From NCBI GenBank assembly GCA_023267435.1, contig JAHFNH010000003.1, positions 12,717-76,716 of the forward strand: a DNA stretch of 64,000 bases, in the 5' to 3' direction. The notes beneath the pieces are model-generated. The model saw only the letters and a list, made by a program, of their open reading frames with translations. It searched no databases and was not told where the DNA came from. Each line of letters starts with the position of its first letter. Within the stretch, counting starts at the first letter, position 1. The position numbers were made by a program, and so were the translations under genes. The stretch comes from Candidatus Nomurabacteria bacterium. Its GTDB lineage: Bacteria; Patescibacteriota; Minisyncoccia; Phycocordibacterales; UBA9973. Of this stretch, positions 5,976-59,355 are shown piece by piece.

Positions 5976-8492
5976 TTACTGACCTTTACACTTTTGACAC
6001 TGAGCTCTAACCGCTTCAGGTACATATGAACATGATGGTACTGGAGCGAAAACACTACAATCCACAGTAGGAGCTGTAGTACCAGTCGGAGGGGTCGTCA
6101 TACCAGCTGGAGGAGTTGTTCCAGTTCCAGTTGGTGGTGTAAATCCGGTTGACATACCACCAGGAATACTGCCACTAGATGGACCATAATCTCCTGTTGG
6201 AATAGTAAATCCTGAAGGCATACCAGTTGGAATATCGCTTGGACTAAAACCTTGTGGAATATTCTCTGGTTTAAAACTGTCTGGTATTTTTGGTTTGAAA
6301 TTTGCCATACAAGCGGTAACTAAGGAAGTAACAACTTCCTGACCAGCCTGACCACTTTGAATTTTTGCCATCATCTCGTCATTTATTTTACTTTTAACAC
6401 AATCACGAATTTCTGCCGGTGCCTGATTTAATTTATCATCCATCATTTTTAAAGCCGAACTTTTTAGCACAGCTGCACAATCTTGCATAGCTTTGCCGAC
6501 TTCTGCTCCAGCTCCTGTATTGTCTCCTTTTTCATAAGCAGCTACTTTGTCTTTTCCAAGTTTATCTTCTAAACAAGCTCGAGCTTCAGGTGGCATCTGA
6601 CCAAGCCCTGTTTTAAATTTATCCATACCTTGTGTCTTCATAGCTTCAAAACATTTCTGGAAAATAGCTCCTTGTTCTGATGTTGGTGTAGCACCTGCTT
6701 TAATTTTATCCAATCCTCCGGCACCCAATTCCTTGTTTAGACAATCTATTGTTTCAGGTGTTGCCTGATCTAAAGAACTTTTCATTTGATCTAACAACTT
6801 GCCCATATTCTTTTCGAAACAATCTTTTATCTTTGCTCCCATTTCTGGTCCAGGCATAAATTTACCACCCTCAATATCACCAATAACTCCTTGTCCAAAA
6901 TTATCTTTCAAACATTGAAGCACTTCTGGTGGAGATTGTTTCAATCCCGCTTTTAACATATTTACGCCGTCTTGCATTTGTTTCAATTTATCAGCTGGAA
7001 TGATATCGTGCTCTTTCGCGAATTGGAAACAAGATTCCTGATTAGCTGTATCATTACAAAATGCTGCACATGTATCTTTTGACTTACATCCGCCAGGACC
7101 CTTGCCTCCAACCTTTTTAGCCATAGCAGCATCTTCAGGACTAATGAGTCCGGCCTTCTCAGCGAAAGTTAAACATTCAGTGGTGTTGCTATCATTATTA
7201 CAATATTTCTGACACTCATCTTTTGTTTTACATCCGCCTGGTGATTGTCCAGAATTTATCAGTGGTAAAACTTTTCGAGCCAGTGCGGCATCTTCAGCAC
7301 TGACAAAACCTGCTTTCTCAGCAAAACCTAAACACTCCGTTGCATTAGCAGAAACCGCGCAATAACTAGAACAAGAATCTTTATCTTTACAACCTCCTGG
7401 CATTGTCGCACCAGCTTTCAAAGCTGAAGCTACTTGTTTCGCCTCTTTTAAAGCCCCAGCTGGAATAAGGTCGTGTTTTTCAGCAAAAGTTAGACATGAA
7501 TCTATATTTTTCAAATCACTACAAAAAGCCTCACAAGAAGCTTTATCTTTACAACTACCAGGACCTTCACCTTTTAATACATCAGAAAACTTTCTTGATT
7601 GATCAGCTTGTTCTTTTGTAACTAAACCAGTTTTTTCTCCGTAAGAAATACAAGCCATCATATTTTCTTGTTTCGTACAGAAAGATTGACAATCTGCTTC
7701 ACTTTTACAACTACCAAGTTCGGCTATGGGAAATTTCGTAACTGGTTTTTCAGTCTTGCTTAAATGACCGACGGGACCATAAGTACCATCAATAACTACA
7801 CCATCAGCAGTAAAACTATAAACTCTACCCCAAAGATTTAGTTTATTGTCTTTCGGATTAATTGTTTTATATCCAAAAGTTATTACAGCTCCTGAACCTT
7901 CATTTAAACCAGTCACTGACCAATTAGTACTAGACGAATTGTATTGGACAGTATATGTCTCTCCTCCTTTGAGTGTACCCATTGGATCACTCGCGCCTAT
8001 CCAACCAGAATCATCAAAACTCGTTGTATCAAAAATTACATAAAATGTATTACCTCCATAAATATAATCTGCCCACGCATTAGAAACTGGTATGTCTTTA
8101 GGTGCAAAAATTTCTACACCGGAAGAAGTCCAACCTTGCTTTATAGCATCAGCAGTTAAAGTAAGAATATTGGTATTACCAGCATAATCAGCAACATAAA
8201 ATTCCTGACCGCCAGAAATATTAGCGGTAACCTTATAAGTTCCCTGACCGCCTGAAATAAGAACCTTGAAACCTTTTCCGTCTGGATTTAAAGCAAAACG
8301 ATTTTTACCCACAGACATAGCTGAAGGATGACTAATAGCCTTACCAGTTTCACAGTCAGTATATGTCCAAAACAAACCAGAAGAACAACCGCGCTCGATT
8401 TTTATATCAGCTGCAGAAACATTTTTTGAAACAATAAAGATACTTAGAACCAAAATTAGGAAAACAAAAATATTTTTTTTCATTATATTCAT
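5976..8492 (-). CDS. large secreted protein of 838 aa with a cleavable signal peptide, an N-terminal beta-rich domain, 5 tandem 4-Cys repeats, 4 tandem 2-Cys repeats and a Pro/Thr/Gly-rich Cys-capped tail
   Basis: Signal peptide MNIMKKNIFVFLILVLSIFIVSKNVSAA. Repeats G(S/G)CK.KD.C..(F/Y)C.......C..FAE K.. at aa 259-505. Repeats P(P/A)E...C(L/V)...C at aa 519-735. A periodic DNA repeat of about 150 bp is visible. Confidence 0.85.
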   Translation of the reverse strand: MNIMKKNIFVFLILVLSIFIVSKNVSAADIKIERGCSSGLFWTYTDCETGKAISHPSAMSVGKNRFALNPDGKGFKVLISGGQGTYKVTANISGGQEFYVADYAGNTNILTLTADAIKQGWTSSGVEIFAPKDIPVSNAWADYIYGGNTFYVIFDTTSFDDSGWIGASDPMGTLKGGETYTVQYNSSSTNWSVTGLNEGSGAVITFGYKTINPKDNKLNLWGRVYSFTADGVVIDGTYGPVGHLSKTEKPVTKFPIAELGSCKSEADCQSFCTKQENMMACISYGEKTGLVTKEQADQSRKFSDVLKGEGPGSCKDKASCEAFCSDLKNIDSCLTFAEKHDLIPAGALKEAKQVASALKAGATMPGGCKDKDSCSSYCAVSANATECLGFAEKAGFVSAEDAALARKVLPLINSGQSPGGCKTKDECQKYCNNDSNTTECLTFAEKAGLISPEDAAMAKKVGGKGPGGCKSKDTCAAFCNDTANQESCFQFAKEHDIIPADKLKQMQDGVNMLKAGLKQSPPEVLQCLKDNFGQGVIGDIEGGKFMPGPEMGAKIKDCFEKNMGKLLDQMKSSLDQATPETIDCLNKELGAGGLDKIKAGATPTSEQGAIFQKCFEAMKTQGMDKFKTGLGQMPPEARACLEDKLGKDKVAAYEKGDNTGAGAEVGKAMQDCAAVLKSSALKMMDDKLNQAPAEIRDCVKSKINDEMMAKIQSGQAGQEVVTSLVTACMANFKPKIPDSFKPENIPQGFSPSDIPTGMPSGFTIPTGDYGPSSGSIPGGMSTGFTPPTGTGTTPPAGMTTPPTGTTAPTVDCSVFAPVPSCSYVPEAVRAQCQKCKGQ

Positions 8493-17847: not shown

Positions 17848-18327
17848 TTATTCATTCATTCGTTCATGAACTCCTTTTAAAAAATCATCTGGTTTTTCTT
17901 TTAATTCTTTTCTTAATTCTTCTTCCGAGAACCATTTCACTTCTGCGACTTCATCCTCAGCTACTTTAAAATCATTAAATCCAGCCGATAATGTTAATAA
18001 AAATTCTTGAGCAAAATAATTATATTTAGTTTTCCTACGTTTTTTAATTCCAGTAATGGGTTTAATATCTTTTAATCCTATTTCTTCTTCTGCTTCTTTG
18101 ATTATATTTTCTTCGTAAGTTTCTCCCTTTTCGACTGTTCCAGCTACTGCAGGACCCCATTTATTAGGATCGTGTTTTTTATTAAATGCACGGCGGGCAA
18201 GTAGAATTTTGCCATTGGTATCAGTAATCCAAAGAGAAGAAACGCGATAAATAGCATTAACATCTCGATTGTCTCTTTCTCTAAATTCTATTATATTATC
18301 ATCTTCATCAACTATTGGTATTTTCAT
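17848..18327 (-). CDS. NUDIX hydrolase (the start is MKIPIV; the longer ORF overlaps the tRNA)
   Basis: Nudix box GTVEKGETYEENIIKEAEEEIGL. Confidence 0.75.
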   Translation of the reverse strand: MKIPIVDEDDNIIEFRERDNRDVNAIYRVSSLWITDTNGKILLARRAFNKKHDPNKWGPAVAGTVEKGETYEENIIKEAEEEIGLKDIKPITGIKKRRKTKYNYFAQEFLLTLSAGFNDFKVAEDEVAEVKWFSEEELRKELKEKPDDFLKGVHERMNE

Positions 18328-18345
18328 AAAATGATTTAAAAATTG

Positions 18346-18416
18346 TTGCGAGACTTGGACTCGAACCAAGATAACCTCCTCCAGAGGGAGGTGTCCTACC
18401 ATTAGACGATCTCGCA
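18346..18416 (-). tRNA. tRNA-Gln (anticodon CUG)
   Basis: Cloverleaf UGCGAGA-UC-GUCU-AAUGGUA-GGAC-A-CCUCC-CUCUGGA-GGAGG-UUAU-CUUGG-UUCGAGU-CCAAG-UCUCGCA-A. The U1:A72 pair is typical of bacterial tRNA-Gln. CCA is not encoded. Confidence 0.8.
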
Positions 18417-18515
18417 AAGTATTAAGTTTTAAACTGCTAATAAATATTGTGAATAATTTTACTTATGGTTGCGTTACTGCGTTTTGTACAAACCTACGGT
18501 TTAACAAAACGAGAG

Positions 18516-28582: not shown

Positions 28583-30259
28583 CTATATTTTATGCTTTCT
28601 TAGAACCATAACAAATGAAATAGAAACTAATGCGAGCAAACCAAACAATAATAATATAACAACATTCCATGGAGCAGGAGGAAGTCCTGTCTTAGGAAGA
28701 CTAGGAGCGGCCACCACCACTGTAGCAAGAGAATAATCGATCGCAGTAAGACCATTTGCACTTCCCTCAGCAGTTCCAGTATTCGTAGTTGTCTGTGTAA
28801 GATTTGTTAAACAAGTGAAAGTCCATGTTTCATTACTTTCAAGTAAATCGTTTTTATTAAGATCTCCTGGGTGTCCTACGACACGGCCTGGTAGACCAGT
28901 ACATTTGTCATCAGTGATACTAACATTACTTAATGGCGCAGTACCAGGATTGGTTACGGTATATGTGTAAGTAACTGCTCCACCATTTGCAGGAAGAACA
29001 AAAACGTTTGGCTTTTTAACTACATGGATTAGTGGTGGTATTATTGGAACTCCGACAACGACAGTTGCATTTGCAGTATCGATTGCGGTAAAACCATTAG
29101 CATCACCAGTTGCAGTGACAGTATTGGTAGTGGTTTGGGAGAGTGTTGTGGTACAAGTGTATGTCCAAGTTTCATTGATATCAAGTTTGGAATCATTATT
29201 TGAATCACCTGAAATGAAACCTACAGTAGAACATGCATTGTCAGAAACAATAACATTACTCATTGGAACTGTTCCGATATTCTTAACTGTATAAGTATAA
29301 GTAACTGGTCCAGGTCCTAGAGGTAATGCTAATGGAGTTGGAACTTTTAAAACACTGATCAAAGGTGGAACAGATGCTGTTGTAAGAGGACCACCACCTT
29401 GGGGAGCTGTTGAGGGAGGGGTTGGAGGGGTCACATATACAGGAATTGAAACAGTATGACTACCAGCGCCGTCTAGTGTAACAGACGCCGTATTTGAAAA
29501 TGCTCTTCCGTGTAATGTTGCACCAGCTAATAAAGCAACGCTTGTTTGATCTAAAATATTTCCTTCAAAAACAGATGTTGTTTCAAGTGTAGTTGCACCA
29601 CCGACAACCCAAAAAATATTGGAAGCCTGTGCACCACCACTTAAAAGAATGCTTTTAGCAGAACTGATATCAAGAGTTCCTGGTACTCTAAATATCCATA
29701 CATCACTTGCTGTTCCTGTAAGATGAATATCGCCTGTAATAATTACATTACCAGGACCAGAAAATGAATAAACTCCAGGAGCGATTGTTAAACCAGCAAG
29801 ATCCCAAGTTCCAGATCCGGTTCCAATATTTGTAGCATCAAATGGTCGAACAGTATTATTGTTAGCATCAGTATAAGCTGCTCCTGCAGCACCGACAGCA
29901 TTATCTACAAAAGTTTTATTGGCTGGTACAGTATCACCCGGCATAGCACAAGCAGCAAAACCGGTAACATTATATCCGGAATCAACTTCGTATATTTTTC
30001 CACCGCCAGTCATTGATGTACATGTCAAACCAGCAATGTTTGAACCTGCAAGTGGACTCACTCCAACATTTCCAGTAATTATAGTTGATGCGGGAGTAGC
30101 ATCAGTTACACCTGCATATGACAAAATTGAGAAACTATCTGCTCCTCCAAGATTAACAGTTGCCGGGCTAGCAAAAGCGTGCGCTTTAGTAGAGCCAGTG
30201 AAATTAAATACAAGAGAAAACAAAACAACTAAGAAAGAAAACTTTTTAAGTATTTTCAT
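28583..30259 (-). CDS. LPXTG-anchored surface protein with an N-terminal ice-binding-like (DUF3494) beta-helix domain and two DUF11-like repeats
   Basis: Signal peptide. AQASNIFWVVGGATTLETTSVFEGNILDQTSVALLAGATLHGRAFS...VTLDG matches the DUF3494 consensus. Two TYTYTV(K/T)N.GT.P.SNV...ETWT(Y/F)TC repeats. C-terminal LPKTG at 28685-28699, followed by a hydrophobic helix and RKHKI. Confidence 0.85.
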   Translation of the reverse strand: MKILKKFSFLVVLFSLVFNFTGSTKAHAFASPATVNLGGADSFSILSYAGVTDATPASTIITGNVGVSPLAGSNIAGLTCTSMTGGGKIYEVDSGYNVTGFAACAMPGDTVPANKTFVDNAVGAAGAAYTDANNNTVRPFDATNIGTGSGTWDLAGLTIAPGVYSFSGPGNVIITGDIHLTGTASDVWIFRVPGTLDISSAKSILLSGGAQASNIFWVVGGATTLETTSVFEGNILDQTSVALLAGATLHGRAFSNTASVTLDGAGSHTVSIPVYVTPPTPPSTAPQGGGPLTTASVPPLISVLKVPTPLALPLGPGPVTYTYTVKNIGTVPMSNVIVSDNACSTVGFISGDSNNDSKLDINETWTYTCTTTLSQTTTNTVTATGDANGFTAIDTANATVVVGVPIIPPLIHVVKKPNVFVLPANGGAVTYTYTVTNPGTAPLSNVSITDDKCTGLPGRVVGHPGDLNKNDLLESNETWTFTCLTNLTQTTTNTGTAEGSANGLTAIDYSLATVVVAAPSLPKTGLPPAPWNVVILLLFGLLALVSISFVMVLRKHKI

Positions 30260-42080: not shown

Positions 42081-42458
42081 TTATTCAATTCTTAAGAAGA
42101 AACCGTCACAATTTATATCTTTACAATTACATAATATTTTAATACCTTCGATTTCTGTCAGATTATAATTCACTGTAATTTCTTCTCCCTCTTTTATTTC
42201 CTTAACAGATTTTAAAAATGGCTCTATTTCATTGGTAATTAATTGTGCATTAGGATTACACGAATGATTAATCCAATTCAAAACATTTGGGTCATTTACC
42301 CATCCTAATCTCCCAATCTTTGCCCAATGTGGTTGTGGTTGATATGAAATGTCACTAATGGGAATAAAATAAAATTTCTCATCTTCATTTATTTCTTTTT
42401 CAGAAAAAACACCACTACCTTGTATTTTAGATGGTCTAATTTTTAGAAATTGATGCAT
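42081..42458 (-). CDS. SET-domain protein (putative protein lysine methyltransferase)
   Basis: GSGVFS, NHSCNPN, EEITVNY and the post-SET Cys cluster CNCKDINCDG. Confidence 0.7.
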   Translation of the reverse strand: MHQFLKIRPSKIQGSGVFSEKEINEDEKFYFIPISDISYQPQPHWAKIGRLGWVNDPNVLNWINHSCNPNAQLITNEIEPFLKSVKEIKEGEEITVNYNLTEIEGIKILCNCKDINCDGFFLRIE

Positions 42459-45327: not shown

Positions 45328-45633
45328 TTATTTCTTCTTTAATTCCTTTCTCTTAACAGTAGGAGTCTTCTTAGGCAAAACATTTTTCTTCTTGCCTTCG
45401 ATGACTTTCTGGTGCACTAAGAAATTGTGCAGTGTATCAGAAAGCTGTGCTCCTTTTGACATCCAGTACTTGATTCTATCAGCCTTGAAATTTGTCTCTC
45501 CGGCTTTAGGATTGTAAGTACCGACGATTTCCAAGAACTTTCCGCTCTTGGTACTGTTCTTTGAGTCAGTCAAAACTGCCCGAAAAGCTGGGTCGTTCTT
45601 TCTGCCTATTCTCTGTAATCTTATTTTTAACAT
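45328..45633 (-). CDS. rpsP: 30S ribosomal protein S16
   Basis: MLKIRLQRIGRKNDPAFRAV...VGTYNP. Confidence 0.92.
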   Translation of the reverse strand: MLKIRLQRIGRKNDPAFRAVLTDSKNSTKSGKFLEIVGTYNPKAGETNFKADRIKYWMSKGAQLSDTLHNFLVHQKVIEGKKKNVLPKKTPTVKRKELKKK

Positions 45634-52715: not shown

Positions 52716-54977
52716 TTATTTTGCAATAGCTTGAGCTTCGTCGAACTTAATAGACAACAACTTAGAAGCGCCATCGGCACCGATAGTGACGCCATAGAGC
52801 ACTCCTGCGCGAGACATTGTCTCTCTGTTGTGAGTGATGACGATAAGCTGAGAACGCTTGGAAAGTTTCTCGAGCATATCTCCGTATTTACGAGAGTTTG
52901 ATTCATCTAGAGCTGCGTCGGTTTCATCTAGGACTAGAAATGGTGGTGGATTCACCTGAGACATAGAGAAAAGCAAAGCGATAGAAGTCAGAGACCTCTC
53001 TCCTCCAGAGAGTGCATGAAGTTCTTTCACTTTCTTATGCGGAAGCGAGACATTTATCTCAATGCCGTGTTCAAAAACAATTCCGTTTTCATTTTCTTCT
53101 TCATCATCTTCCATTTCTTCTTCATTTATTTCTTCTCCATTTTTACTTTTCTTCTTTCTCTTCTGTTCAGCTACCACTGCTAAAAAAGCAGAACCTCCGC
53201 CGAACATAAGCGAGAAAAATTCTTGAAATTCAGTATTTATTTTCTTTATGCCTTCTTTGAACGAAATATCTATTTTCTCTTTCAGGTCGATCATTAATTT
53301 TCGCAATGACTCAATACTGACTGCCAAATCTTCCATTTCTTTCATTAGGAATTTCTCTCGATCAGCAACTTCATTATATTCTTTCAATATCTCGCTTCCC
53401 CCGCCAAGGCCGGCATCTTCTAATTTTATTTTTATTCTTTCTATCTTTCTCTTTTGCTCGTCTTGAGCAAATTCGTTGATTTCTCCAGAAATTTCAAAAT
53501 TCTTATAGGACAAAACATCCACGCCTATAAGAGCAGAACCTTCTTTAATTTCATTTTCAAAAGCTTCAGATCTGCGAGACAAATTCTCTTCTTTTACTAA
53601 GATAATATTAAGTGAAGCAGAAAGTTCTTGTTGTTTTACTCGATAAGTGAATTTTTCTCTTTCTTTTATTCTTGTCTCTTCATTTTCTGAATCTATTTCC
53701 CTTCTTAAATTCACTGCTTGAGTATTTATTTTATCTTCTTCATTTTGAATATTTTGTATTTCAGTTAAAATTCCAGCTTGAGTATTTTTCAAATTATCTA
53801 TTTCTTCTGAATTGGAAGTATTTTCTAGTTGTTCTGGTTTCTGATTGAATTTATTTAAAATAATCTTAATACGGCTTAAAATAGCTGACACTTCTGCCAA
53901 GCTATCTTTATCGAGCGCTTCATCGATATAATTATTCACCTCGCTGACTATCTTTAATACTTCTTCATGGGAAACGACATGCGCCTGTTGTGGAGCTTTT
54001 TGGGCACGGCGCTCTTCCATTTCGATCATTCCTTCGATGCGTCCGAGCTTGCGATCTAGTTCACCCTTCAAACTTCTGATCTCAGAAATTTTCCGATCCA
54101 GATTTCTAAGTTCTTCGTTTTTTGGATTTTCTTGAATTGTACCTGCATCTTCTATACTGGAAATTTTTCCAGCAATATCTGCCATTTCTATTTGGATTTT
54201 ATTTTTTTCTGAATTTAATGCTGACTTTTGATTTTCTAAATAAACACTCTCTTTTTTCAAATATTCGCGGTAAAGATTTGAAAGATCTATTTTCATTTCT
54301 TTTGCTTTCTCGAATTTTTCCACCTGACGCTTTAAGAAATTTAAATGCGGAGTTATTTCTTTACGGATCAAAGAAACCTCTTTCATATTATTGGTGGTGC
54401 GATCTAGCTTCCTTTCAGCTTCTTTTATTTTGTACTGATATATTTTGAGTCCCAACGCATCTTCGATCATTTCTCTTCTGTCTTTAGGCGATGCATTCAA
54501 AATCCTGTCTGCTTCTCCTTGTGAGATGATATGGTGTCCGGAAGAACCAATATTCACAGAAGCTAAAAGATTATTGATGTCTTTCAATCTAACTTCTGAA
54601 CCATTTAAAATATATTTATTCAAACCATCAGCATACACTTCTCGAGAAATAGAGATCTCATCATAATTTAAATTTATATTCTCTCCCGATTCATTTTCTA
54701 ATTTGAAAACTTTATCTTTATTGTCGAAAAAAATAGTAACGACGGCTCGAGTGCCTTTCGGTAAATTTTTAGAACCTTTAAAAATAAGATCAGTGCCAGA
54801 CTTTCCGCGCATTGATTTCATGGACTGTTCGCCTAAGACGAAACGAAAAGACTCAAGAACGTTTGATTTTCCAGAACCATTCGGACCCACCACCGAGACA
54901 ACGGGACTCAAAAATTCCAAAGATGTTTTTTTTGCAAATGATTTAAAACCGTTTATTTCTAATGATTTTAATCTCAT
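52716..54977 (-). CDS. smc: SMC-family chromosome segregation ATPase, short form of 753 aa
   Basis: N-terminal Walker A GPNGSGKSN, long coiled coils, C-terminal LSGGERSLTSIALLF and Walker B FLVLDETDAALD. It lies immediately downstream of rnc. Confidence 0.8.
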   Translation of the reverse strand: MRLKSLEINGFKSFAKKTSLEFLSPVVSVVGPNGSGKSNVLESFRFVLGEQSMKSMRGKSGTDLIFKGSKNLPKGTRAVVTIFFDNKDKVFKLENESGENINLNYDEISISREVYADGLNKYILNGSEVRLKDINNLLASVNIGSSGHHIISQGEADRILNASPKDRREMIEDALGLKIYQYKIKEAERKLDRTTNNMKEVSLIRKEITPHLNFLKRQVEKFEKAKEMKIDLSNLYREYLKKESVYLENQKSALNSEKNKIQIEMADIAGKISSIEDAGTIQENPKNEELRNLDRKISEIRSLKGELDRKLGRIEGMIEMEERRAQKAPQQAHVVSHEEVLKIVSEVNNYIDEALDKDSLAEVSAILSRIKIILNKFNQKPEQLENTSNSEEIDNLKNTQAGILTEIQNIQNEEDKINTQAVNLRREIDSENEETRIKEREKFTYRVKQQELSASLNIILVKEENLSRRSEAFENEIKEGSALIGVDVLSYKNFEISGEINEFAQDEQKRKIERIKIKLEDAGLGGGSEILKEYNEVADREKFLMKEMEDLAVSIESLRKLMIDLKEKIDISFKEGIKKINTEFQEFFSLMFGGGSAFLAVVAEQKRKKKSKNGEEINEEEMEDDEEENENGIVFEHGIEINVSLPHKKVKELHALSGGERSLTSIALLFSMSQVNPPPFLVLDETDAALDESNSRKYGDMLEKLSKRSQLIVITHNRETMSRAGVLYGVTIGADGASKLLSIKFDEAQAIAK

Positions 54978-54978
54978 A

Positions 54979-55674
54979 CTAATCTAGCCAATTCTTAATT
55001 TTCAAAGCTGCTTCGGCGGCTTTTTGCTCTGCTTCTTGCTTGCTTTTACCCTTGCCTTCAGCTGCCACATCAGCACCCAAGAAAATACCGACGGTAAAAT
55101 GCTTGTCATGATCCGGACCTGTTTCGTGTAATACTTTATAAGAAGGAGTGACATTTAAAAATTCTTGAGCTTTTTCTTGTATCAAACTCTTGGCATCACG
55201 CCATAATTTTTTAGAAACAATTTCTTCAGTATAAGGCAACAACACGGTAGTGATAAACTTTTCAGCTGGAGCATAACCCTGATCTAAAAATAATGCGCCG
55301 ACATATGCCTCAAAAGTATTCGCCAAAATATATTGTCGAGCCTTTCCTGTATCTTTAGCTTCTCCTTTCGATAAAAGTAAGAAATCATTCATTTCGATCT
55401 TAGATGCGACTTCAGAAATAATCACCGCATTTACCAATGCTGAACGTAAAGAAGTCAGTTCCCCCTCGGTATAAGATGGATATTTTTTATATAAAAAATC
55501 TGTCACGACTAATTCTAAAACAGCATCACCTAAAAATTCCAGGCGTTCATTGTGTGATAAACCTGCAGAAGGATTTTCATTGATATAGGAACGATGTATA
55601 AAAGCCTGCTTTAATAGATCTTTATCCTTGAAAACTATTTTTGTTTTTTCTTCAAAATCTGAAAACTGAATCAT
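54979..55674 (-). CDS. rnc: ribonuclease III
   Basis: ERLEFLGDAVLELVV is the RNase III signature. A dsRBD lies at the C-terminus. Confidence 0.92.
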   Translation of the reverse strand: MIQFSDFEEKTKIVFKDKDLLKQAFIHRSYINENPSAGLSHNERLEFLGDAVLELVVTDFLYKKYPSYTEGELTSLRSALVNAVIISEVASKIEMNDFLLLSKGEAKDTGKARQYILANTFEAYVGALFLDQGYAPAEKFITTVLLPYTEEIVSKKLWRDAKSLIQEKAQEFLNVTPSYKVLHETGPDHDKHFTVGIFLGADVAAEGKGKSKQEAEQKAAEAALKIKNWLD

Positions 55675-55676
55675 GA

Positions 55677-56576
55677 TTATTTTTTAGTGATAATTTCAAT
55701 AGCTTTTGCAATCAGAGGAATGATATCGTTGTAAATATGGAGATCTGGAATTTCAGAAAGCTGGAACCAACGCGCACCATCAAGCCCACCAGAACTCTCT
55801 AATACAAGTTCGCGATATTCACTCTCAGCTAAAAAGTATGTGACTTTTTTCAAAATCTTTCCTTGTTCTGGGTGGCTCGCAACATATTCATTCTCACCAA
55901 GTTTTTCTTTTATCGTTACATCCAAACCGATTTCATCTTTTACTTCTCGAGTGGTTGCTTCTTCTTCGTTCTCACCTTCACCGATTCCACCTTTAGAGAT
56001 AGTCCAATATCCGAAAACATCATGCACCATGGCAAAATAAACTTCACCGCCTTTCTTGGCATAAACCAATGCTCCGCCTTTTCTTTCTACTGGAAGCTTT
56101 GTTTTATCTACTGGCTCGTCATTCTTTTTCTTTTTACTAATTTCATCTTTGCCCGGCTCGCCTATTTCTTTATAAACTGCACCTAGAACTCCATTTATAA
56201 ATTTGCCGGAATTTTCACCGCCGAAAGATTTAGCGAGTTCTATCGCTTCGTTAATAGCCACCTTAGGAGGAACTTGCTTGCGGTCGCCAAAAAGAAGCTC
56301 AGTTAAGCCTATTCTTAAAATATTTCTATCAACAACAGATATTTTATCCAAAGGCCAATCTGGAGCTGCTTTTTCTATTATTTCATCAATTACGGAACGT
56401 TTCTTTATTACTAATTCCAAAAGAGATAGCACAAAAATATCGTCCTCCAGTCCTGGGGCGAATTCTTTTAAGTTGCGTTCCGCCGCTTCTTTGAGAGGAA
56501 CCTCCTTAGCACCATTAAAATCCCACTCGAAAAGCGTCTGGAGCACTATTGATCTGGAAAGGTGCCTATTTGCCAT
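55677..56576 (-). CDS. fusion protein: NusB-like N-terminal domain and NUDIX hydrolase C-terminal domain
   Basis: N-terminus RHLSRSIVLQTLFEWDF...DRNILRIGLTELLF...INEAIELAKSFG resembles NusB. The C-terminal Nudix box is GGIGEGENEEEATTREVKDEIGL. Confidence 0.7.
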   Translation of the reverse strand: MANRHLSRSIVLQTLFEWDFNGAKEVPLKEAAERNLKEFAPGLEDDIFVLSLLELVIKKRSVIDEIIEKAAPDWPLDKISVVDRNILRIGLTELLFGDRKQVPPKVAINEAIELAKSFGGENSGKFINGVLGAVYKEIGEPGKDEISKKKKNDEPVDKTKLPVERKGGALVYAKKGGEVYFAMVHDVFGYWTISKGGIGEGENEEEATTREVKDEIGLDVTIKEKLGENEYVASHPEQGKILKKVTYFLAESEYRELVLESSGGLDGARWFQLSEIPDLHIYNDIIPLIAKAIEIITKK

Positions 56577-56680
56577 AAATTAATGTAATTTCTTTGAATT
56601 TTTTATCCGCGAGGGTCCCACTCGGTACTCCGAGAAGGGCGCAGTGGAAAAAAAATTTAAAGAAATGAAATCACTTAAAA

Positions 56681-56917
56681 TTACTTAACTTCAGCTTTCT
56701 TTGCTTTCGCTTTTGCCTGCTTCTTTTCAACTTTCTTAACTAAGTCTAAAACTTTTGTACCGCGGTAAAAACCACAAGAAGGACAAACAGTGTGTCTTCG
56801 TTTTAAAGCTGAACAATTGGCGCATTTTGCAAAATCAGTCTTTTTAAGAGCGTGATGTGAGCGCCTGTTTGCTGTATGCGATTTTGTATGTCTCATTCGT
56901 ACTACCATGGAATCCAT
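56681..56917 (-). CDS. rpmF: 50S ribosomal protein L32 (Zn-ribbon form; the start may be M4 at 56908)
   Basis: MVVRMRHTKSHTANRRSHHAL...CANCS...CPSCGFYRG. Confidence 0.88.
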   Translation of the reverse strand: MDSMVVRMRHTKSHTANRRSHHALKKTDFAKCANCSALKRRHTVCPSCGFYRGTKVLDLVKKVEKKQAKAKAKKAEVK

Positions 56918-57002
56918 TGTAGCATATTTAATAACAAAAGCAACCAGCCATCATCGGCTGGCAGATTTTTAGAAAAAATAAAATTGTGATATTATAAAAC
57001 CT

Positions 57003-58842: not shown

Positions 58843-59355
58843 ATGGATATAGAAAAAACACTATTACATGCAACAGTTTGCTACCTCATAGAGGGTAAAC
58901 AAGTATTGCTCGGTATGAAAACCGACAAGATTGGCAAAGGTTGTTGGAATGGCTACGGAGGTGGAATTGAACCAAAAGAAACTCAGTTGCGAGCAGCTAA
59001 AAGAGAGTTAAAAGAAGAGTGCGGAGTAAGAACTTTTCAAAAACATCTTAAAAAAGTCGCTATAATTGATTTTCATAATACAAAAAGTGACGGCACTACT
59101 TTCGTATGCAGAGTACACTTTTATATTACAGAAATTTGGAGAGGAATTCCAAAGAAATCAAAAGAAATGGAAACTCCAACATGGTTTAGTTTCAAAAAAC
59201 TTCCGATTGAAAAAATGATGCCAGCTGATAAACAATTTTTACCATTAATATTAAGCGGTAAAAAAATAATTGCTAAAGCTAAATACGGCCCATTTCAAAA
59301 AGAACTTTTAGAACCAATGGAAATTAAAGAAGTTGATTCTCTGCCAGAAAATTAA
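58843..59355 (+). CDS. NUDIX hydrolase (MutT-like)
   Basis: Nudix box GGGIEPKETQLRAAKRELKEECGV. Confidence 0.75.
   Translation: MDIEKTLLHATVCYLIEGKQVLLGMKTDKIGKGCWNGYGGGIEPKETQLRAAKRELKEECGVRTFQKHLKKVAIIDFHNTKSDGTTFVCRVHFYITEIWRGIPKKSKEMETPTWFSFKKLPIEKMMPADKQFLPLILSGKKIIAKAKYGPFQKELLEPMEIKEVDSLPEN

Follow-up and report, generated by a model that had tools for sequence, protein, structure and literature searches.

In a 64,000-nucleotide (nt) stretch of a Candidatus Nomurabacteria genome (contig JAHFNH010000003.1; the window, by which we mean the whole stretch analyzed), the gene at 55677–56576 on the minus strand encodes a protein that joins the transcription antitermination factor NusB to a Nudix domain resembling the hydrolases of diadenosine tetraphosphate (Ap4A) and other diadenosine polyphosphates (ApnA). 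Its single uninterrupted frame, taken from the list of open reading frames (ORFs) and read directly, specifies 299 amino acids (aa) and ends in a TAA stop. The two-domain architecture, the orthology to nusB, and a conservation pattern in which the ligand pocket outlasts the catalytic residues are computed results in which we place high confidence. The best explanation is that the gene encodes the organism's real NusB, the nucleator of the NusB-S10-BoxA rRNA antitermination complex, with S10 and BoxA binding predicted from sequence. For the appended domain we put forward, more tentatively, a role in reading adenine-polyphosphate ends or signals.

The NusB half (aa 1–138; 56163–56576, minus strand) was identified by profile searches and predicted structure alike. 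PF01029 matched aa 7–136 with 113.9 bits, spanning model positions 3–133 of 133, and the NCBIfam nusB equivalog model TIGR01951 scored 124.4 bits against a cut-off of 88.35. A first-pass annotation of this DNA had recognized NusB from the motifs RHLSRSIVLQTLFEWD (aa 4–19) and DRNILRIGLTELLF (aa 83–96); both are present, and the profile scores now place this half within the NusB equivalog family. Its closest relatives of solved structure are the NusB proteins of T. maritima (E = 5e-20) and Aquifex (5e-18), with that of E. coli also found and E values ranging to 2e-14. In two AlphaFold models, seven helices span aa 2–138 at a predicted local distance difference test score (pLDDT) of ~85, and Foldseek matched the model to T. 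maritima NusB (1tzv) with a template modeling (TM) score of 0.82.

Residues that contact BoxA are partly retained. U8 of BoxA is stacked by F122 and its base read by E81 in the Aquifex NusB-NusE-BoxA structure (PMC3177189). F122 aligns with F126 of the window protein and E81 with D83; among 54 diverse fusion proteins, F126 is invariant and D83 is 94% conserved. The BoxA-contacting K118 and S128 of Aquifex are not retained (N122 and G132 in the window protein). Compared with characterized NusB proteins (TIGR01951; E. coli, Aquifex, and T. maritima; PDB 3R2C and 1TZT), the fusion shares the full-length fold, an equivalog score above the cut-off, a Phe for stacking on BoxA, and an acidic side chain at the U8 pocket, but has ~160 additional C-terminal residues forming the linker and the Nudix domain. 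Such an extension is borne by no characterized NusB, and although the factor is universal and has been studied in depth, we know of no enzymatic or ligand-sensing appendage on it. RsmB/Sun proteins likewise join an N-terminal NusB-fold RNA-binding module to a C-terminal enzyme acting on rRNA (an m5C methyltransferase in RsmB), whereas in the fusion the antitermination factor itself supplies the NusB module and no methyltransferase follows. Membership in RsmB/Sun was rejected: the RsmB models matched weakly and on the NusB half only, with scores far under their cut-offs (NF011494, 46.8 against 319), and Pfam and NCBIfam searches found no methyltransferase domain.

The orthology follows from gene order. 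A scan of species-representative genomes yielded 80 loci from Patescibacteria, a group of ultra-small bacteria, nearly all with the order rpmF, nusB, rnc, smc; about 50 carry the fusion and about 30 a plain nusB. Fused lineages comprise Kaiser-, Nomura-, Zambryski-, Ryan-, Niyogi-, and Komeilibacteria together with many unnamed Paceibacterota, and plain ones Azam-, Moran-, Yanofsky-, Wildermuth-, and Staskawiczbacteria. The first-pass annotation had cautioned that a separate canonical nusB elsewhere in the genome would make the fusion a distinct paralog. Since fused and plain genomes share the same gene order, however, the fusion occupies the ancestral nusB slot and is a positional ortholog, probably not a side paralog, and no second NusB occurs within the 64-kb window. 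In unfused genomes nusB directly adjoins rnc, so the fusion did not result from the joining of two neighboring genes. A neighbor-joining tree of the 137-aa NusB domains, which is not robust, grouped most fused forms and required at least four state changes; on these sequences, a single origin of the fusion is likely but unproven.

The same architecture is widespread in the databases. In each of two protein searches, of the kind that the first-pass annotation had proposed, both Pfam domains were present in 120 of the 120 best homologs listed. One database protein (P0001) is 100% identical to the window protein, and close homologs all derive from Patescibacteria or candidate phyla radiation (CPR) assemblies labeled Nomurabacteria, Paceibacterota, or Minisyncoccia. 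Proteins with as little as 34% identity still carry the fusion, which is spread over many candidate phyla-level groups. We considered whether cluster representatives with only a Nudix or only a NusB domain are split genes and rejected this: the Nudix-only entries start at the L161 codon ('MP(V/I)E.K.G' vs 'LPVERKGG'), as expected of gene calling on fragments or frameshifts. Named database entries read just 'transcription antitermination factor NusB', and NusB is also the name that the Prokaryotic Genome Annotation Pipeline (PGAP) gives to homologs; the label conceals the second domain. Literature searches combining NusB with Nudix, NusB with Patescibacteria, and Nudix with Parcubacteria found no description of the fusion. 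Its sequence is thus already on record, whereas the biological entity, a novel form of NusB, is undescribed.

The C-terminal half (aa 163–299; 55680–56090, minus strand) has a Nudix fold of the Ap4A/ApnA-hydrolase type, as judged by Pfam, Foldseek, and BLASTP alignment to human NUDT2. PF00293 matched aa 186–278 with 44 bits (cut-off 21.1), and both AlphaFold models show an alpha/beta/alpha domain at aa 163–298 with a pLDDT of ~90. A Foldseek search against the PDB returned 534 matches at E ≤ 1e-3; among the 50 listed, 49 were Nudix proteins and one was NusB. The top match of the Nudix half was Aquifex Ap4A hydrolase (3i7u; E = 5e-10, TM 0.86), followed by mycobacterial MutT1/Rv2985, which are diadenosine polyphosphatases, the C. 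elegans and human Ap4A hydrolases, the Thermus Ap6A hydrolase Ndx1, and DR1025. The NrtR sensor domain (3gz8), Dcp2, NudC, and BdRppH ranked lower. Dcp2, too, places a helical domain in front of a Nudix domain, with a hinge between the two, and its Foldseek alignments covered 256–267 columns at a root-mean-square deviation of ~15–16 Å. With the minimal Ap4A/ApnA hydrolases (Aquifex aq_158, 3I7U; Thermus Ndx1, 1VC8; human NUDT2, 3U53; C. elegans, 1KTG), the fused domain shares the fold, the W-T-x-x-K-G motif, the loop-5 Tyr, a second stacking aromatic, an adenine-binding acid, and phosphate-binding lysines. Unlike them, it is tethered to NusB, keeps the catalytic Glu variably, aligns a Gly with the loop Glu, and is only 22–29% identical in sequence. 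A YtkD-type model scored 11.5 against a cut-off of 154 (NCBIfam).

The Nudix box, located by regular expression and direct reading, is GGIGEGENEEEATTREVKDEIGL (aa 196–218; 55923–55991, minus strand). Set against GX5EX7REUXEEXGU, it reads G196-x5-E202-x7-R210-E211-V-K-D214-E215-I-G217-L218, with the first Glu of 'EE' replaced by Asp. All four carboxylates are therefore present, one as Asp, but not all four glutamates. The first-pass annotation, which had called a Nudix hydrolase with an intact box, was right about the fold and not about strict intactness: D214 departs from the consensus in the window copy, and the family often loses a catalytic Glu. The full E..RE..EE set was found in 10 of 54 diverse representatives (50% clusters, with identity to the query down to 34%), in 22 of 49 species-representative genomes, in 59 of the 120 closest relatives (~80% identical), and in 36 of 58 further relatives (61–79% identical), so that the glutamates, which bind metal and are required for hydrolysis, are complete in 19–62% of the family, depending on the sample. 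The 'RE' Glu is lost most often, giving way to K, V, I, A, or R; 11 of 47 sequences in the diverse alignment keep it, and its retention ranges from 23 to 69% by sample. From its sequence, Mg2+-dependent pyrophosphohydrolase activity of the window copy is plausible, while for family members lacking the 'RE' Glu such activity is doubtful.

The pocket behaves differently. W191, T192, K195, Y231, Y247, W270, and Y282 are shared by 119 of 120 close relatives; in the diverse set they are 85–100% conserved, and Y282 reaches 100% in all sets. In Ap4A hydrolases the adenine lies between two aromatic rings, those of the loop-5 Tyr (Y82 in human NUDT2) and of another Tyr or Phe (F128); its amino group is hydrogen-bonded by E130, and the P1 phosphate is bound through K42 and Y82, to which the equivalent of K89 contributes in the Plasmodium enzyme (PMC4734340). 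We aligned the human NUDT2 sequence, checked to be identical to PDB 3u53, with the Nudix half by BLASTP; W191, K195, Y231, K243, Y282, and D284 correspond to W38, K42, Y82, K89, F128, and E130, respectively, and these mapped positions are 77–100% conserved in the family. A stacking Tyr or Phe following the box is typical of Nudix Ap4A hydrolases (PMC2425470), and here the stacking Tyr occupies position +13 relative to the box rather than +17, which matches the Aquifex enzyme. In the predicted pocket, adenine would be stacked between Y231 and Y282 and hydrogen-bonded by D284, with the phosphates held by K195, K243, and W191. Because the pocket residues are far better conserved than the catalytic glutamates, ligand binding appears to be the conserved property and hydrolysis optional. 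A precedent is CFIm25, which lacks two box glutamates and binds Ap4A with a Kd of 2.4 µM without hydrolyzing it (PMC2425470).

The two domains are connected by a linker (aa 139–162; 56091–56162, minus strand) that both models and the family comparison describe as a GEPGKD motif with a disordered stretch rich in Lys behind it. In the two independent AlphaFold models, aa 140–154 fall below a pLDDT of 50 and the predicted TM score (pTM) is 0.49 and 0.54. A docked two-domain arrangement was rejected: the second run, made with a broader alignment (61–86% identity), again returned a pTM of 0.54 and left the linker disordered. Family members differ in the length of the linker (10–44 aa), which comprises 20–25 residues in the window protein. 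The models thus suggest a Nudix domain flexibly tethered to NusB and predict no fixed inter-domain arrangement; alignments and pTM are the basis for what is said here of pocket geometry and of contacts between the domains. The GEPGKD motif itself (56145–56162, minus strand) directly follows the last NusB helix and is succeeded by a charged low-complexity tail. Motif and tail are common to fused NusBs and many unfused NusBs of the Paceibacteria type (C-termini in loci L050–L074), while the motif is absent from the aligned Aquifex and T. maritima sequences. As the unfused sister NusBs already end in GEPGKD and a charged tail, the Nudix domain seems to have been added onto this tail.

Independent support for retained BoxA recognition came from upstream regions. 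The BoxA consensus is GYTCTTTAANA (PMC5725501). Its first seven bases, G[CT]TCTT[TC], lie in the 40 nt before the start codon of the fused gene at 18 of 49 loci (L003, L004, L008, L009, L013, L018, L021–L023, L025, L028, L029, L032, L035, L038, L041, L044, and L054) and often directly adjoin the ATG; ~2% would be expected by chance. These loci are related, so the counts are not independent events. The same motif was found upstream of unfused nusB in 0 of 28 loci and, with the same search window, upstream of the control genes rpmF in 1 of 73, rnc in 1 of 69, smc in 1 of 46, and thrS in 0 of 25. This enrichment upstream of the fused gene suggests, indirectly, that its NusB may still recognize BoxA. 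BoxA-mediated autoregulation of Nus-factor genes, with translational repression at suhB in E. coli, has been shown experimentally (PMC5725501), and by analogy the motif suggests that nusB in these bacteria may be autoregulated through BoxA, like E. coli suhB.

The rpmF-nusB spacer of the window (56577–56680, minus strand) folds into a long imperfect hairpin with AU-rich arms around the GC-rich tip CTCGGAGTACCGAG (56621–56634). Its folding energy of -27.7 kcal/mol corresponds to z = -3.65, and 0 of 200 shuffled sequences folded equally well. The median spacer is 69 nt in fused and 15 nt in unfused loci. The hairpin may serve as a site for RNase III or as a leader that regulates the nusB-rnc operon. 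Rfam matches in the window were limited to three tRNAs, with no significant one in the leader, and neither S10 nor an rRNA leader lies within the window. A second hairpin, GC-rich and flanked by T-runs on both sides, lies just upstream of rpmF in the divergent thrS/rpmF intergenic region (56941–56962, both strands) and may act as a leader or resemble a terminator that works in both directions.

We tentatively favor a reading in which the fused Nudix domain is a tethered reader or processor of adenine-polyphosphate 5' ends on BoxA-bound transcripts; which ligand the domain binds and whether it acts on RNA in cis both go beyond the alignments. NusB would dock on BoxA close to the 5' end of a nascent rRNA-type transcript and stay with the elongating polymerase, and the tether would expose the Nudix pocket to a very high local concentration of the 5' end of the same RNA. 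The domain might then capture the 5'-terminal adenine-polyphosphate of that RNA, be it pppA/ppA or an Np4A-type cap. RppH and NUDT2 convert ppp-RNA to p-RNA and remove Np4N caps (PMC9283932). Copies with a complete box, probably including that of the window, would in the same way hydrolyze the end to a 5'-monophosphate, while copies with a degenerate box would only hold it. We count the operon shared with the RNase III gene as support for a reading based on RNA ends. The first-pass annotation had proposed RNA 5' caps or (p)ppGpp-like nucleotides as targets. Its first suggestion, taken to cover caps at RNA 5' ends as well as dinucleoside polyphosphates, would fit the modeled fold neighbors (Ap4A/ApnA hydrolases, NUDT2, RppH, and Dcp2); no result of our analysis points to (p)ppGpp.

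A broader version of this proposal is possible, though we would not bet on it: the Nudix domain may be devoted to reading an adenine-polyphosphate signal, which could be a free alarmone of the Ap4A type or a pppA- or Np4A-capped nascent 5' end, and may gate or anchor NusB-dependent rRNA antitermination in Patescibacteria. If so, it would provide the first example of a Nus factor that contains its own sensor for a nucleotide or a 5' end, in which catalysis is an optional reset. A clade-wide fusion points to a direct connection of rRNA transcription and processing with RNA 5'-end chemistry (ppp, Np4A caps) or dinucleoside-polyphosphate signaling, set in minimal genomes with few classical regulators. 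Complete and degenerate versions around an invariant pocket form a natural series for separating binding from hydrolysis.

Several results weigh against the reading of 5' ends. The frequent loss of the 'RE' Glu suggests that hydrolysis or decapping is not the selected function. The loop Glu of Ap4A hydrolases (human E110, C. elegans E103) aligns with the conserved G264, although the alignment of this loop is unreliable; the nearby D266 is 32–100% conserved. RppH models score well under their cut-offs, the best being NF001936 with 31 bits against 118 and a match confined to the box region (aa 177–219; NCBIfam), and RppH membership was rejected on these curated thresholds. The Nudix domain is also acidic, with an isoelectric point (pI) of 4.9 and a family median of 5.3, whereas the RNA-binding surfaces of RppH and Dcp2 are basic. 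RppH, NUDT2, and Dcp2, Nudix proteins acting on ppp-RNA or on Np4N- or NAD-type caps, are what the fused domain may resemble (PMC9283932), but the fused domain differs from them in its acidity and its sub-cut-off RppH scores, and any RNA-binding channel in it is conjectural. Finally, the window leader holds just a weak BoxA-like sequence, TTTCTTTAAA (56656–56665), with T for the initial G of the consensus and buried in the hairpin. The sole match to the extended BoxA in the window, TGTTCTTTGA at 45555 (plus strand), equals chance expectation, and we therefore discarded a BoxA in the window itself.

A close rival, though in itself rather unlikely, holds that the domain is a mostly non-catalytic receptor for an Ap4A- or ATP-type signal, like the Nudix domains of NrtR and CFIm25. 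Ligand binding would alter how NusB engages BoxA, S10, or RNA polymerase, for instance by freeing NusB from a docked, autoinhibited state; rRNA antitermination would thereby be tied to stress or to the energy state. An invariant pocket with an eroding catalytic Glu is the CFIm25 pattern (PMC2425470), the NrtR Nudix domain is among the fold matches, and the acidity of the domain would let it dock on the basic face with which NusB meets RNA. CFIm25/NUDT21 and NrtR are indeed Nudix folds short of box glutamates that still bind Ap4A or ADP-ribose within RNA-processing or transcription-regulatory proteins (PMC2425470; 3gz8); they belong, however, to other Nudix sub-lineages with other partner domains, and many fusions, including the window copy, keep the full carboxylates. 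A pure sensor would have no need of these, which about half of the close relatives retain, and the disordered linker of variable length together with the low pTM gives no sign of a defined allosteric interface. No link between Ap4A and NusB is known.

Two further explanations are improbable, and about equally so. The domain may be an unrelated passenger, a housekeeping Ap4A/ApnA hydrolase fused to a well-expressed gene in compact genomes, which would rid the cytoplasm of dinucleoside polyphosphates and be functionally uncoupled from NusB. Independent domains on a flexible linker, nearest relatives that are free-standing minimal Ap4A/Ap6A hydrolases, and the near-canonical box of the window copy would agree with this. 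A housekeeping enzyme should, however, retain its catalytic Glu more consistently than the 'RE' position does, the fusion has persisted across deeply diverged groups, and in no unfused lineage does a separate Nudix copy adjoin nusB. Alternatively, the Nudix fold may have been co-opted as a structural subunit, a protein-protein adaptor in the antitermination complex in the manner of SuhB, which is described as an enzyme-fold component integral to the E. coli rRNA antitermination complex (PMC6614797). Here the apparent dispensability of catalysis and the distinct, longer leader gained by fused lineages are in favor, but the most conserved residues are the nucleotide binders of Ap4A hydrolases, needless for a pure adaptor. 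Least credible by far is an assembly or frameshift artefact joining two genes, or a NusB-like paralog beside a canonical nusB: although inspection covers 64 kb of the genome and some database entries are NusB-only or Nudix-only fragments, the architecture is continuous in all 120 best matches from many independent assemblies and sources, recurs in the ~50 species-representative genomes, scores above the equivalog cut-off, and is a positional ortholog by synteny, and the Nudix-only entries begin where fragment gene calling would place them.

The fusion gene lies on the minus strand in the order rpmF, nusB-Nudix, rnc, smc (operon), matching the first-pass placement between rnc-smc and rpmF, in a window of 30–40% G+C. 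Upstream, rpmF (56681–56917; ribosomal protein L32, PF01783 with 59.9 bits) is the conserved neighbor in 73 of 80 related loci; the Firmicutes arrangement has rpmF ahead of a fab-acpP-rnc-smc cluster. Downstream, the ATG of rnc (54979–55674; RNase III, matching PF14622, PF00636, and dsrm) begins 2 nt past the nusB-Nudix stop codon by direct reading, and this position of rnc is kept in both fused and unfused loci. The cluster ends with an smc-like gene (52716–54977; 753 aa, PF02463 SMC_N with 179 bits), whose position is likewise conserved across related loci. Its product is ~750 aa long in the window and in relatives (L001–L074), and SMC_N covers the entire protein, without a hinge-domain match. 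Typical bacterial SMC proteins have ~1,150–1,200 aa, and the window protein looks like a shortened SMC.

In one related locus (L049, contig CAZWMQ010000003.1), the fused gene (5992–6930, plus strand) contains three in-frame TGA codons, each coinciding with a family-invariant Trp (W74, W191, and W270), and smc was not recovered there as a single ORF. Judging from these codons, this Patescibacteria lineage evidently reads UGA as Trp, neither as stop nor, unlike Gracilibacteria/Absconditabacteria, as Gly.

The window holds three NUDIX genes, as first counted: besides the fusion, one at 58843–59355 (plus strand), weakly MutT-like, and one at 17848–18417 (minus strand), YfcD/IDI-like, neither of which reaches a curated family cut-off. 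The latter ORF overlaps a tRNA (18346–18416, minus strand; Rfam 62.8 bits) at its 5' end, so its true start must lie downstream of 18346. Elsewhere on the minus strand, the window encodes a small SET-domain protein of 125 aa (42081–42458) and a 558-aa protein combining an ice-binding-like domain with DUF11/DUF7507 repeats (28583–30259).

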